From the IMG/VR virus record IMGVR_UViG_3300029619_000123: a DNA stretch of 5,541 nucleotides; one strand, written 5' to 3'. This document shows positions 2,191 to 5,541 of this stretch, one piece after another (position 1 is the stretch's first letter; each line of letters opens with the position of its first letter). Source of the stretch: a virus (lineage: Duplodnaviria > Heunggongvirae > Uroviricota > Caudoviricetes). A program made the position numbers and the translations under genes. The notes beneath the pieces are model-generated. The model was given only the letters and a program-made list of their open reading frames with translations. It did not search any database and was not told the DNA's origin.

Positions 2191-2423
2191 GCTGCACCTC
2201 CGAGATGCTTCATGTTTTTTCCGGAGCAAAAGGCTATAAGCGGCATACTGATGCGGTAATTACGGCCCAGCGGTTCACAAATCACCTTCTGACATTCACG
2301 GTCAACCAGGCTAACACGTAGAACATGCCCTGCAGGCGTGGTGTACCACTGCCCAACTGTAGGAATTGATGTTTTTTTACGCTGAAGCAAACGGCAAATA
2401 TTGAGGATCAACGGATTAAGCAT
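2187..2423 (-). CDS. Hypothetical small protein (78 aa), no family recognised
   Basis: ATG at 2423 with GGAGG SD about 9 nt upstream. Start overlaps the 278-aa ORF stop by 8 nt; its TGA overlaps the replication gene ATG (ATGA). Translation: MLNPLILNICRLLQRKKTSIPTVGQWYTTPAGHVLRVSLVDRECQKVICEPLGRNYRISMPLIAFCSGKNMKHLGGAA. Confidence 0.55.
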   Translation of the reverse strand: MLNPLILNICRLLQRKKTSIPTVGQWYTTPAGHVLRVSLVDRECQKVICEPLGRNYRISMPLIAFCSGKNMKHLGGAA

Positions 2424-3252
2424 GACGATGCCCTCCGCTGATATTCAGGAGACGGTGAATATGAAAATTAGCCTTATCCGCCAGACGAATACGTTCAGCC
2501 TGCAAGTTAAGAAGGGTTTCTACCAAAACCTGATGCGCCTGCGGATCCGAAAGAGTTACCTTGCGCAGAGCACGTAGTGCAGTTGTTACATAACTGAGTT
2601 TATGTAAGTCTTCATCATTCAGACGAGTGAGGGCTGGGACAGTAGCCATGATGGCAGCCTCCGATAACAGTGAATTACCTTCACCACCGGAAACGCCAAT
2701 TTCGCTGGTGGTGAACTGAACGGGGTTGGCGTAACCGGCGTTATCGGAAACCGGCGCACCTTTCGGTGCCCCCGTCCAGCCCACCATAATTTGGGTGTGC
2801 ACAGACACAGACGATAAAAAAGACGCTGGCGCGTCATATATCGCCGATAACATTTCCAGGACGCCAATCCCGTCACCCGCTTTATAAGGTGCCTGAACAG
2901 TGTAACGTCCCGGAATGGCAGAATCAATGTGCTGGTGGTCCTTCACACTCAACAAAATCACGCCTGAATTTCCACAAAGGACTAAAGCACTCATGCGGGT
3001 AGTCTTTGCGAAGATAGATAACGCGCTGTGTTTCTGGTTCCCAACGAATAACATGGACATAAAGCCCTCTTCCGTCACGAAACCAGCGGTTAAGTTCCCG
3101 CACAACTCGCCCCCCACAGTCAGGTAAAGTTCTCTGTGGTTACTTACAGCCAGGTGATTTGGTAATCTGCATTCATGCCGTAACAACAGGTGTTCAGCGA
3201 CACTGACCACCAGCTGTTGCGACAAACGGTTATTTGCCGTTAAACTGTTCAT
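2416..3252 (-). CDS. Hypothetical protein (278 aa), no family recognised; accessory gene in early operon
   Basis: Longest ORF in the region, same strand as neighbours. ATG at 3252 overlaps the upstream gene stop (ATGA); GGAG SD about 10 nt upstream. No Walker A, HNH, DPPY or other motif I can recognise by eye. Confidence 0.7.
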   Translation of the reverse strand: MNSLTANNRLSQQLVVSVAEHLLLRHECRLPNHLAVSNHRELYLTVGGELCGNLTAGFVTEEGFMSMLFVGNQKHSALSIFAKTTRMSALVLCGNSGVILLSVKDHQHIDSAIPGRYTVQAPYKAGDGIGVLEMLSAIYDAPASFLSSVSVHTQIMVGWTGAPKGAPVSDNAGYANPVQFTTSEIGVSGGEGNSLLSEAAIMATVPALTRLNDEDLHKLSYVTTALRALRKVTLSDPQAHQVLVETLLNLQAERIRLADKANFHIHRLLNISGGHRHA

Positions 3253-4044: not shown

Positions 4045-4134
4045 ACAATATGTACCTCCAGTATACATATTACATGATTGAAATGAACCTTCAAGGTACT
4101 TGTACCTTATCGGTACAAAGGTTTTAATTTCGTT
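4045..4134. promoter_or_regulatory. Divergent cro/cI intergenic control region with operator-like palindromes and candidate PR / PRM promoters
   Basis: 16-bp palindrome AAGGTACttGTACCTT at 4093-4108 with perfect 7-bp arms. Second inverted repeat ATATGTA-n9-TACATAT at 4048-4070. Further GGTAC half-site at 4112-4116. Candidate PR on minus strand: -35 TTGAAG (rc of 4089-4094), 16-bp spacer, -10 TAATAT (rc of 4067-4072). Candidate PRM -10 TAATTT at 4126-4131, just upstream of the cI ATG with no SD, suggesting a leaderless cI mRNA as in lambda. Confidence 0.6.
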
Positions 4135-4809
4135 ATGAAAACAATCCATGACATCCGGCGGTCTAACGCCAGAAAACTGAGAGATGGTGTTGGCGGAAAT
4201 TCATCCTTTGCCACCATGATTGATCGCGAGCCAACCCAAACCAGCAGGTTTATGGGGGATGGCGCTACTAAAAATATCGGTGACAGCATGGCACGGCACA
4301 TCGAAAAATGTTTCGACCTGCCTGTCGGATGGCTTGATCAAGAACACCAGACAACGAACATCACAAAAAAACCTGATGTTTCAATCACTAACAAACAAAT
4401 AACGTTAGTCCCTGTCATATCATGGGTACAGGCCGGAGCATGGAAAGAAGTTGGCTATTCTGAGGTTGATTTGAGCACAGCAGAAACGTATCCCTGCCCT
4501 GTACCCTGTGGCGAAATGACTTATATCTTGCGGGTGATTGGTGATTCAATGATTGATGAGTACCGCCCTGGAGACATGATTTTTGTTGATCCCGAAGTCC
4601 CTGCCTGCCACGGTGACGACGTTATTGCATTGATGCACGATACAGGCGAAACCACCTTCAAGCGATTGATAGAAGATGGAACACAGCGTTATCTCAAAGC
4701 ATTAAACCCAAACTGGCCTGAGCCTTACATTAAGATTAACGGTAATTGCTCTATAATTGGTACAGTGATTTTCTCGGGAAAACCAAGAAGATACACAATA
4801 AAGGCCTAA
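4135..4809 (+). CDS. CI-like prophage repressor with C-terminal LexA/S24 peptidase autocleavage domain (224 aa)
   Basis: S24 hallmarks all present: Ala-Gly cleavage site (VQAGAW), catalytic Ser motif (VIGDSMID), catalytic Lys (TTFKRL). N-terminal region ends with a ...LPVGWLD segment typical of repressor DNA-binding domains. Divergent from cro-like gene. Confidence 0.9.
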   Translation: MKTIHDIRRSNARKLRDGVGGNSSFATMIDREPTQTSRFMGDGATKNIGDSMARHIEKCFDLPVGWLDQEHQTTNITKKPDVSITNKQITLVPVISWVQAGAWKEVGYSEVDLSTAETYPCPVPCGEMTYILRVIGDSMIDEYRPGDMIFVDPEVPACHGDDVIALMHDTGETTFKRLIEDGTQRYLKALNPNWPEPYIKINGNCSIIGTVIFSGKPRRYTIKA

Positions 4810-4821
4810 TCAATATTTATG

Positions 4822-4846
4822 AACCTGCTTCGGCAGGTTTTTTTAT
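4822..4846 (+). terminator. Rho-independent terminator downstream of the repressor gene
   Basis: AACCTGC-TTCG-GCAGGTT perfect 7-bp stem with TTCG tetraloop, followed by TTTTTTT, starting 13 bp after the cI stop codon. Confidence 0.8.
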
Positions 4847-4848
4847 AC

Positions 4849-4876
4849 TTGACAATGTACCTATGAGATACATAAT
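4849..4876 (+). promoter_or_regulatory. Candidate PL-like sigma70 promoter with operator half-site in the spacer
   Basis: -35 TTGACA at 4849-4854, 16-bp spacer, -10 CATAAT at 4871-4876. The spacer contains TGTACCT (4856-4862), the same heptamer found twice in the cro/cI intergenic region (4051-4057, 4102-4108). Confidence 0.5.
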
Positions 4877-5294
4877 GTATCCAAAAGAAACATGAGGCAG
4901 GCAAGATTCAAACAAAATTTGGTTGTAACACGGCGTATGGCACATGCGTCGTTAGCGGTCTGGGGACGTTAAAGGGGACAATCCACTCCTTGCTAGGGCA
5001 AACAAACCAGGTAGCCGGAATGTGCAAGTCAATGATGATGCTGATAAGACGCCTAACCAGCGTGGCGATCCGGTTTGACGCCTGGGAAGAGACCAGGGTG
5101 CAACGATGAGGGCATTTATGGAGCCGCGACAAAGTGTGGTGCCGTAACTGGCTAAGTGCTCTCAGCGTTGTGGTCATCCGCGAAATGGCGCGGCGGTAAG
5201 TATGGCTGGGTTACTCTTTCCCCGTTGAGGACACCGGATTGTCAGGTTGACCATACGCCTGAGTGACAACCCCACCACAACAGCCACTGCTTTG

Positions 5295-5340
5295 GCGGTA
5301 CCAGTTTGTACACTTGCTTCCGGCTGGTACCGCTCTTTTT
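5295..5340 (+). terminator. Terminator-like hairpin with GGTACC-containing arms followed by a T-tract; overlaps a boxA-like CGCTCTTTTTA
   Basis: GCGGTACCAG (5295-5304) and CTGGTACCGC (5324-5333) form a perfect 10-bp inverted repeat around a 19-nt loop, followed by TCTTTTT (5334-5340). The loop is long for a canonical intrinsic terminator. The arms carry the GGTACC operator-like motif. Confidence 0.4.
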
Positions 5341-5341
5341 A

Positions 5342-5428
5342 CAAAACAGAGAAGAGCATCACCGGACGACGGGCTCATAACCCAATCCATCCGGGCGGCT
5401 GCCACCGCAGGTGTTCTTCTCTGTTTTG
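5342..5428. other. Long imperfect hairpin (~87 nt) in the 5' leader of the right-end gene
   Basis: caaaacagagaag (5342-5354) is the exact reverse complement of cttctctgttttg (5416-5428), 13 bp. This is extended by cacc (5360-5363) pairing ggtg (5410-5413). The enclosed ~46-nt loop is GC-rich. Confidence 0.35.
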
Positions 5429-5477
5429 TGGAGAAACCAACCGACCTTGCAGGGTCGATATGATGAGGAGCAGCAAA

Positions 5478-5541
5478 ATGGCTAGCGAACGCAGTACTGA
5501 TGTGCAGGCATTTATCGGGGAGCTGGACGGCGGCGTATTTG
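5478..5541 (+). CDS. Hypothetical protein, N-terminal 21 aa only (MASERSTDVQAFIGELDGGVF...); continues past window end
   Basis: ATG at 5478 preceded by GAGGAG SD (5465-5470) at 7-nt spacing; open to the window end. In-frame ATGs at 5460 and 5463 are alternatives with weaker SD. Too short to assign a family. Confidence 0.5.
   Translation, partial: MASERSTDVQAFIGELDGGVF

Follow-up and report, generated by a model that had tools for sequence, protein, structure and literature searches.

Two conserved RNA hairpins in the early-left leader of lambdoid prophages: a probable DicF-type terminator followed by a probable RNase III helix upstream of yfdP

The IMG/VR virus record IMGVR_UViG_3300029619_000123 (Caudoviricetes) comprises 5,541 nucleotides (nt), and this whole stretch is referred to here as the window. 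It is the immunity region of an Escherichia coli lambdoid prophage of the mEp460/Ayreon/SfV type. Two consecutive hairpins are located near its right end, upstream of the gene yfdP, and the hairpin region is the last 190 nt of an untranslated leader of about 600 nt that belongs to the repressor-controlled early-left (pL) operon. A preliminary description, made from the sequence alone, had proposed that the hairpins, together with a boxA-like motif, represent an antitermination or attenuation element. The observation itself is genuine and not an artefact, and both hairpins are conserved RNA structures. The explanation that we favour, and to which we give an even chance, is a combined one: a leaky terminator would end a small RNA (sRNA) of the leader, and a processing helix for RNase III would follow it. 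The region contains the following elements, all on the plus strand:

5294-5334: hairpin 1, with a G+C-rich stem of 13 base pairs (bp), the positional homologue of the DicF terminator hairpin
5336-5340: T-run, the U-tract of the predicted intrinsic terminator and also the first 5 nt of hairpin 2
5336-5434: hairpin 2, a three-way junction on a 25-bp helix, found by folding and covariation
5371-5383: apical stem-loop GGGCUCAUAACCC of hairpin 2, identical to the anticodon stem-loop of tRNA-fMet
5430-5441: tail motif GGAGAAACCAAC, the 3' foot of hairpin 2, conserved as GUGUGGAG(A/U)AAC
5442-5457: hairpin 3, 6 bp, just upstream of the ribosome-binding site
5465-5480: Shine-Dalgarno (SD) motif GAGGAG (5465-5470) and yfdP start codon (5478-5480); the gene runs past the window end

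Hairpin 1 had been described as a 10-bp-stem hairpin with a T-tract at 5295-5340. It is present, but the stem comprises 13 bp within 5294-5334 (5294-5306 paired with 5322-5334, three of the 13 pairs being G-U). The folding energy (dG) was -21.2 kcal/mol (z = -4.4), none of 200 shuffled sequences folded as well, and the hairpin was still formed when the whole leader was folded at minimum energy. C5335 and then UUUUU at 5336-5340 follow the stem. Hairpin 2, described as a hairpin of about 87 nt at 5342-5428 with a perfect 13-bp stem, also exists, but it spans 5336-5434, and its base is a helix of 25 consecutive pairs (5336-5360 with 5410-5434), 15 of which form an unbroken Watson-Crick run. This helix begins within the U-tract, its 3' end is GGAGA, and it carries two apical arms, P2 (5362-5394) and P3 (5395-5408). 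The dG of hairpin 2 was -51.0 kcal/mol (z = -7.8; 0 of 200 shuffles were as stable), and the folding of the 196-nt region, proposed earlier as a check, yielded z = -7.2. The minus strand of hairpin 2 reached -46.2 kcal/mol, and a U-G pair at alignment columns 30 and 139 was kept in 29 of 34 sequences. Because the plus strand is more stable and G-U pairs are conserved, hairpin 2 is a feature of the RNA of the yfdP-sense transcript; a palindrome at the DNA level was also considered and was ruled out by the G-U pairs, which favour the plus-strand RNA. The GAGGAG motif and the ATG at 5478 are located as described, and this ATG is the RefSeq yfdP start in a 100% identical chromosome. Hairpin 3, absent from the preliminary description, was not significant when folded alone (z = -0.95).

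To quantify conservation, homologous loci were collected with a YfdP profile search using one genome per species, which yielded 68 loci from about 25 genera, and a covariance model was built from 13 diverse copies of hairpins 2 and 3. The alignment contained 35 homologues, 34 of which were distinct; the controls were shuffles of the 3' letters and partners slid by 1-3 columns. Standard pairs accounted for 97.3% of 1442 pair cells in the 34 distinct homologues, the shuffles had a mean pairing of 91.5%, and 0 of 500 shuffles reached any of the five measures. With slid partners pairing decreased to 43-55%, and 3-5 compensated pairs were left, compared with double compensatory changes at 17 of the 43 pairs (74 cells) in the true register. 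The covariation check that had been suggested was thus positive. Compensation was seen in every helix except in the three G-C pairs of the apical stem-loop, and hairpin 3 had compensatory changes at 5 of 5 modelled pairs, with 98.8% of its cells pairing.

A basal helix of 19-32 bp was kept in about 48 loci from about 20 genera. Directly after the T-tract its median length was 24 bp, and it was at least 20 bp long in 46 of 57 hairpins found by a script, a few of which are not hairpin 2. In Serratia, Chania, Yersinia, Xenorhabdus, Providencia, Morganella, Rahnella and Symbiopectobacterium the apical part was unrelated, and these distant genera have a helix of 23-32 bp that extends from the U-tract to GUGUGGAG(A/U)AA. 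The tail motif was found in nearly all homologues, even in loci that lack hairpins 1 and 2 (L013, L022, L051 and L054 in our numbering of loci). Phages with hairpins 1 and 2 include Stx2-converting, cdt-converting and serotype-converting ones, prophages from about 20 genera of enterobacteria contain them as well, and at least part of a 732-nt query (leader and yfdP start) was present in 4705 of 5426 complete E. coli genomes. In 85 of 115 viral contigs with enough downstream sequence, yfdP was the first gene after the cassette, 110-137 nt past the core; in the other 30, the first gene was rdgC-like, yfdR-like or excisionase (xis)-like. Because the cassette precedes different first genes, it belongs to the leader and not to yfdP. 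IMG/VR loci in which the cassette of hairpin 1, hairpin 2 and GGAGAAAC precedes genes other than yfdP are exemplified by L167, L170, L195, L172 and L115; their first genes are rdgC-like, of a second rdgC-like type, yfdR-like (phosphohydrolase) or excisionase-like, and the mosaic joint is located just after GGAGAAAC(U)AAC.

This cassette is very common and yet unannotated. No Rfam family covered hairpins 1-2 in the window (E <= 1), in positions 5100-5541 (E <= 10), in six homologous loci or in the whole genome of phage Ayreon, and a full-text literature search with the hairpin sequences retrieved unrelated primers only. Elsewhere the Rfam scans matched C4 and isrK, and in the relatives they gave only sub-threshold matches to RprA and STnc100. 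As kinds, a terminator-derived prophage sRNA of the DicF type and RNase III processing of a phage early leader are both known; judged from the sequences, what appears to be new is hairpin 1 as a variant at the DicF position and hairpin 2 as a widespread, unannotated structured RNA. The latter is well enough supported to be taken into experiments on RNase III, antitermination and tRNA mimicry.

Hairpin 1 has a G+C-rich stem followed by a U-run, and 49 distinct homologous hairpins keep a stem with unrelated sequences, each of them abutting a T-run of 4-8. Stem arms were exchanged for GGCGGUACCAG/CUGGUACCGC, GUCGGCGUC/GACGCCGAC, UGCCCAUC/GGUGGGCA, GCGGCGUC/GGCGCCGC or GCGGCUG/CAGCCGC, and in all aligned homologues the T-run was invariant or nearly so. 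This wholesale replacement of the stem next to an invariant U-run is the signature of an intrinsic terminator, so that hairpin 1 and the U-tract are probably a Rho-independent terminator of the DicF type that would act as such in vivo. Since hairpin 1 lies between pL and the first gene, transcription from yfdP to xis must pass it, and the earlier proposal that expression of the downstream gene requires read-through of a terminator is borne out in that a conserved terminator-like hairpin with an invariant U-tract separates pL from yfdP. Many genera (for example L028, L044, L047 and L062) have an enlarged, long type of hairpin 1, in which GAAGAUAAUGUUCUG is conserved internally and CCAACACCAGGAGG is frequent in the loop. 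This places an SD-like AGGAGG followed by AUG-UUC-UGA (or GUG) inside the hairpin, which could be a mini open reading frame (ORF) or a second seed, and AGGAGG...AUGUUCUGA is contained in some of the variants; the window has the short type without this insert.

The assignment of the leader to pL is based on the following features of the window, with gene names from the RefSeq annotation of an identical E. coli chromosome:

4135-4809, plus strand: ymfK, LexA-family repressor of the cI type (RefSeq)
divergent from ymfK, minus strand: ymfT (cro-like) and ymfL (cII-like) (RefSeq)
4849-4876, plus strand: promoter pL, TTGACA-16-CATAAT, 11 of 12 matches in a promoter scan
4855-4874, inside pL: operator oL, 20 nt, ATGTACCTATGAGATACATA, matching oR
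downstream of ymfK, plus strand: yfdP, yfdQ (DUF2303) and yfdR (RefSeq)

The operator oL (ATGTACCTATGAGATACATA) matches oR (ATGTACCTCCAGTATACATA) at 4050-4069, between the cI-like and cro-like genes, and because this 20-nt operator is embedded in it the promoter at 4849-4876 was identified as oL/pL. The annotation of phage Ayreon contains a promoter at the matching position, and a hairpin terminator (4821-4840) is located directly 3' of the repressor gene. From position 4810 to the window end, 732 bases are 100% identical to several E. coli chromosomes and 98-99.5% identical to the lambdoid phages 2H10, cdtI and Ayreon and to Stx2c-converting phages. The gap between ymfK and yfdP is about 670 nt long and contains no gene annotated in RefSeq; on the plus strand, no ORF of at least 40 amino acids (aa) was found from 4895 to 5263. 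A short leader ORF beginning MCKSMMMLIRRL is present at 5020-5108 (plus strand), about where Ayreon has an annotated hypothetical coding sequence of 39 aa. An ORF that spans the hairpins (5263-5463, 66 aa) and an antisense ORF at 5211-5405 were rejected as mechanical since the indels and compensatory changes are incompatible with a coding constraint; the same changes argue against conservation of a leader ORF across the region. The translation of yfdP matches YfdP of SfV, ST64B and LLS, and the order of repressor, leader of 600-900 nt and yfdP is shared by SfV, SfII, SfIV, ST64B, phiNP, LLS and a Klebsiella phage. In the complete phage Ayreon, the early-left operon consists of yfdP, yfdQ, an annotated terminator, yfdR, three small genes and the excisionase gene; xis is the end of the operon.

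The closest counterpart of this arrangement is the dicBF operon of the K-12 prophage Qin. Two elements upstream of hairpin 1 bear on the comparison:

5162-5281, plus strand: structured leader module, homologue of the region upstream of dicF in Qin, ending in the mosaic joint CACCACAAC
5282-5293, plus strand: single-stranded stretch AGCCACUGCUUU, a candidate sRNA seed and one of two alleles

The module at 5162-5281 is 89% identical (106 of 119 positions) to Qin (L078, 2254-2366) just upstream of dicF, whereas many phages share the sequence only from about 5273 onward. Hairpin 1 itself is 74% identical to DicF (40 of 54 positions), and the two agree in the 5' arm UUUGGCGGUA(C/U)CAGUUU and in the end CCGC(C/U)CUUUUU. 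The loci are also alike in plan, with a repressor, a promoter, a long leader, a terminator hairpin, a long helix and the first gene, and both have a helix of at least 21 bp after the U-tract. They differ in that the helix of Qin encloses other structure and is followed by dicB instead of yfdP, and in that the single-stranded target-pairing region at the 5' side of DicF is replaced in the window and the loop is different. Because this 5' part differs and the Rfam model of DicF (RF00039) yielded no match, hairpin 1 was classified as a paralogue at the DicF position and not as a member of DicF. With the 5' region and the ACUCC loop segment replaced, its targets probably differ from those of DicF (ftsZ and others).

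Among 120 viral contigs, a nearly constant scaffold of hairpin 1 is combined with either of two 5' stretches, ACAGCCACUGCUUU of the window type and UUUAUGCUGUGUGUAGUCCU of the SfV type. Such a seed swap on a constant terminator scaffold is what would be expected of an sRNA gene. The Rfam model of RprA aligned the SfV-type stretch to the 3' seed AUUGCUGUGUGUAGUCUUUGCC of RprA with a sub-threshold score of 40.8 bits, and judged by this likeness the stretch may be a prophage-encoded mimic of the RprA seed. In leaders of the SfV, ST64B and LLS types (L003, 1440-1470; L007, 1455-1480; and many more), the stretch before the hairpin reads (A)UUGCUGUGUGUAGUCUU, with hardly any difference from the 3' seed region of RprA, a host sRNA. 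The DicF position would then serve prophage sRNAs in general as a site where seeds can be exchanged, and one allele would copy the seed of a host sRNA. A likeness to STnc100/PasD (RF02076) was also found: the model scored 39.5 bits in SfV and 35.1 bits in ST64B just upstream of hairpin 1, with a gathering score of 47, and its terminal hairpin coincides with hairpin 1 in SfV. In contrast, the window has the Qin-type module and no RF02076 match at E <= 1, and published copies of STnc100/PasD are located near Q and the lysis genes and not in a pL leader. Probes for the Pas sRNAs of enteropathogenic E. coli (PasA, PasB, PasC and PasD) did not match the window.

The leader as a whole is apparently a chain of paralogous units, each consisting of a terminator-like hairpin and then a long helix that has CACAAC...GUUGUG as its closing pairs. 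One such upstream helix, in a Rahnella locus, was matched by the hairpin 2 model with 31 bits, and further units were observed at about 5099-5176 of the window, at 1597-1744 of L052 and at 1184-1300 of L004. In ST64B, an extra upstream terminator unit corresponds to the detected RNA STnc1310, which rises together with two genes downstream of cI under peroxide and nitric oxide shock (PMC7067206). STnc1310 was considered as the counterpart of hairpin 1 and was rejected, as it maps to the more upstream terminator hairpin (L004, 1153-1226).

In the sequence of events that we propose, hairpin 1 would stop a part of the pL transcripts and would thereby form the 3' end of a short leader-derived RNA, probably an Hfq-type sRNA that has the single-stranded stretch just 5' of hairpin 1 as its seed. 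The remaining transcripts would continue through hairpin 1 into yfdP-yfdQ-yfdR...xis. In this read-through RNA, hairpin 2 would most likely be cut by RNase III, so that the leader or sRNA part would be separated from the mRNA and the new 5' end of the yfdP message would consist of GGAGAAAC, hairpin 3 and the SD motif. This offers a testable picture of how lambdoid phages that lack N organize the start of an early-left operon that ends in xis.

E. coli RNase III acts on substrates of about two helical turns, and hairpin 2 contains at least 20 bp of nearly uninterrupted double-stranded RNA (about two turns). Because all genera keep a helix of about two turns directly after the terminator, and because there are precedents in Qin and in the N leader of lambda, we consider hairpin 2 a probable RNase III substrate. 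In the lambda N leader, an RNase III hairpin is located between nutL and the N ribosome-binding site. As in the window, a large helix in the untranslated leader of pL follows a regulatory RNA element and comes just before the ribosome-binding site of the first early-left gene; in contrast, there is no sequence relationship, and the upstream element is nutL with N autoregulation instead of a terminator and sRNA. Hairpin 2 does not sequester the SD motif, and its proposed role would be cleavage. The U-tract of DicF in Qin is followed, 3 nt further on, by the start of a 21-bp helix. Production of DicF involves Rho-independent termination within the dicBF operon together with RNase E processing, and an alternative form of 72 nt is an RNase III product of the read-through dicBF transcript (PMC9438474; PMC5069750). 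Nucleotide 72 would, by our mapping onto the predicted helix, be position 12 of the 21-bp helix of Qin. For this homologous dicF locus, what has been documented is leaky Rho-independent termination with RNase III processing and not factor-dependent antitermination.

Several points weigh against this combination of terminator and RNase III helix. We observed the structures, their conservation and covariation, the homology with the dicF locus and the promoter and operator context; that transcripts terminate there in vivo, that an sRNA results, and that RNase III cleaves hairpin 2 with the outcome described above are steps that we infer. The loop of hairpin 1 has 15 nt and only five U residues follow the stem, so that hairpin 1 may be a weak terminator, and a consensus terminator scan did not list it, an omission explained by a loop above the limit of the scan. 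The Rfam DicF model did not match the window at E <= 1 or positions 5100-5541 at E <= 10. The Qin precedent is a published length mapped onto a predicted helix. The apical core of hairpin 2 is strongly conserved in sequence in the Enterobacteriaceae copies, which RNase III does not need. Finally, hairpin 2 occurs without hairpin 1 in L036 (Mixta tenebrionis, 1782-1828) and L164, where it begins about 10-25 nt past a predicted promoter flanked by operator sequence and would form the very 5' end of the early-left RNA. It is thus a leader element in its own right and not merely a trimmer of the sRNA.

A passive function of hairpin 2, as a 5' stabilizer against RNase E and/or as a shield from Rho loading and without cleavage, is an unlikely explanation. 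An untranslated leader of about 600 nt would otherwise be an obvious target for Rho, long helices follow one another along the entire leader, hairpin 2 can be the very 5' end of the transcript, and the distant genera conserve only the length of the helix, all of which would fit a passive role. However, perfect helices of 23-32 bp are substrates of RNase III in enterobacteria and would hardly stay uncut, the GUGUGGAGAAAC foot and the apical core are left unexplained, and the homologous Qin locus is processed by RNase III (PMC9438474; PMC5069750).

Also quite unlikely, and slightly more so, is the idea that hairpin 2, by itself or in combination with modules further upstream in the leader, acts as a put-like cis antiterminator that replaces N, the nascent RNA binding to the transcribing polymerase and rendering it resistant to terminators further downstream. 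A put-like processive system had been offered as one possibility in the preliminary description. Local alignment of the HK022 putL and putR sites with five leaders, which is a test of sequence only, gave no similarity above that of dinucleotide shuffles: 15 of 200 shuffles reached the score of the window for putL and 100 of 200 for putR. A shared CAUGCGUCG/ACGGCG stretch near 4930 had looked like put and was rejected because it was no better than shuffles. In structure, both are RNAs in the early leader of a lambdoid phage without N (an N homologue has been reported lacking in the related phage LLS; PMC12315714), and in some relatives hairpin 2 follows pL directly, as does putL of HK022 (PMC9378689). 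However, put is about 70 nt long with two irregular stems, whereas hairpin 2, about 99 nt long, is built as a three-way junction on a 25-bp helix, occurs in one copy per genome, and has an apical part that is not conserved across genera. Antitermination would suit an operon with annotated internal terminators, such as the one after yfdQ in Ayreon, and with xis at its end, and it would agree with an element that travels with the pL leader irrespective of the first gene and has a conserved core sequence and a conserved foot, ACAC...GUGUGGAGAAAC. On the other hand, Ayreon has a single copy and none in its rightward or late operons, the distant genera keep only the long perfect helix, for which a generic role of double-stranded RNA is a better fit, and hairpin 2, being downstream of the first terminator, cannot aid the passage of hairpin 1.

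The apical arm of hairpin 2 resembles initiator tRNA. With its three G-C pairs and the loop CUCAUAA, GGGCUCAUAACCC is identical in 13 of 13 positions to the tRNA-fMet anticodon stem-loop, a tRNA sequence that was verified in 5426 of 5426 E. coli genomes. In 32 of 35 core-type homologues the motif reads GGGCUCAU(A/U)(A/C)CCC or GGCUCAUAACCC; the loop core CUCAU was likewise kept in 32 of 35, and the 13-mer was exact in 20. The likeness was spotted only in hindsight and should be taken as a lead, not as a finding. That the arm serves as an operator or decoy that is bound or cut by a VapC-type nuclease, MetRS, the 30S P site or IF3, or a phage protein, and thereby controls the early-left operon or titrates a factor, seems to us very unlikely, although the stem-loop geometry is the same as in the tRNA and CUCAU is kept while the surrounding helices drift and covary. 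The same 21-nt core also stands inside two unrelated outer stems (L080 and L116). Against mimicry, the core is absent from all distant-genus copies, in which the helix is still kept, so that it is not needed for the general function; apical pairing is unproven because the three G-C pairs never covary; the flanks do not extend the tRNA stem; and no candidate binding protein was identified. ARAGORN recognized no tRNA in the window or in 50 related loci; its single hit in the 51 loci that were scanned was an odd tRNA-Ile(aat) at 1722-1800 of L024, in the early-left leader of a Phytobacter prophage. Taken jointly, the two bolder possibilities are that the apical arm is a functional tRNA-fMet mimic or that hairpin 2 represents a new, put-independent class of cis-acting antiterminator RNA, and one or the other of them would hold with a low probability. 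The mimic could, for example, act as decoy for, or sensor of, a VapC-type initiator-tRNA nuclease, or be a ligand of the P site or IF3 that controls translation, and the antiterminator would stand in for N in the large group of lambdoid phages of the yfdP/SfV/ST64B kind.

Three observations concern the apical region and tRNA-like pieces. In L080 and L116, which are IMG/VR loci, the core GACGGGCTCATAACCCAATCC has wholly different outer stems and downstream genes, as if the apical motif were a mobile module of its own. In L075 (Serratia symbiotica, 1823-1934), where yfdP is degraded, the unchanged stem arms of hairpin 2 enclose the apical sequence in the opposite orientation (GGTGGGTTGGGTTATGAGCCCATCGCC), and the two strands obtain about the same score with the model; this looks like a DNA inversion across the 25-bp inverted repeat. 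The leaders of L049, L059 and L026 contain pieces that resemble a T-arm and acceptor (GGGTTCGAATCCC...), which are not called as tRNAs.

The boxA-like motif that had suggested an N/nut system lies across the junction of the two hairpins:

5331-5344, plus strand: boxA-like string CGCTCTTTTTACAA, apparently a chance resemblance and no separate element

The string is present exactly as reported. Its first five letters, CGCTC, are the end of the 3' arm of the variable hairpin 1 stem, and the invariant T-tract follows. In homologues the same positions read CCGCCCTTTTT, CCGTCCTTTTT, GCACCTTTTTT or CCGACCTTTTT, and other phages have CCGCC, CGTCC, GCACC or CGACC at the CGCTC columns. The boxA-like letters are not conserved because they are part of a freely varying stem, and from the alignment we regard the resemblance as a coincidence. 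A tempting misreading is thereby corrected: the "boxA" is no more than a terminator stem arm plus the T-tract. An N/nut site, in which CGCUCUUUUUACAA recruits NusB/NusE for read-through with a phage N-like protein, is extremely improbable: the string does match 8 of the 9 first letters of CGCUCUUUA, ends in ACAA like rrn boxA and is situated in the leader of an operon in the position of the lambda N operon, but its CGCUC part is conserved in no diverged homologue and is base-paired in hairpin 1, its U-run is paired in hairpin 2, and a better look-alike, GUGCUCUUU (..GUUGUGG), lies in the 3' arms of the long helices of homologues, where it is simply complementary to AAGAGCA and base-paired. No boxB, that is, no short 5-bp stem with a GNRA-like pentaloop, was found 3' of the string, which runs directly into the 25-bp helix of hairpin 2. 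YfdP had no Pfam match and no arginine-rich motif and matched only PHROGs families of unknown function, and no N-like protein was found among the early-left proteins of the identical chromosome and Ayreon, which are of unknown function, phosphatases or excisionases. A classical attenuator, the remaining suggestion of the preliminary description, also received no support, as neither a leader peptide nor a competing antiterminator pairing was found in what was a weak test and no systematic search.

Several minor observations were made in related records and elsewhere in the window. The cryptic prophage CPS-53 (L009, K-12-like) has kept yfdP, but its likeness to the window is confined to the 25 nt or so directly before the ATG; the 330 nt upstream of yfdP contain neither hairpins 1-3 nor the rest of the leader, and K-12 data sets therefore cannot inform on the element. 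Typical enterobacterial yfdP prophage sequence is found in records labelled Fredinandcohnia, Martelella, Chryseobacterium and Geobacteraceae (L017, L020/L021, L028 and L033), which is probably due to contamination or mis-binning. On the minus strand, the window contains above-threshold Rfam matches to C4 antisense RNA (2704-2791, 82.8 bits) and isrK (2816-2892, 55.4 bits). Both are located in the rightward early operon within the ORF 2416-3252, annotated as "immunity region" in Ayreon, and constitute a C4 module of the P1/P7 type or an IsrK module of the Gifsy type downstream of the cII-like gene.

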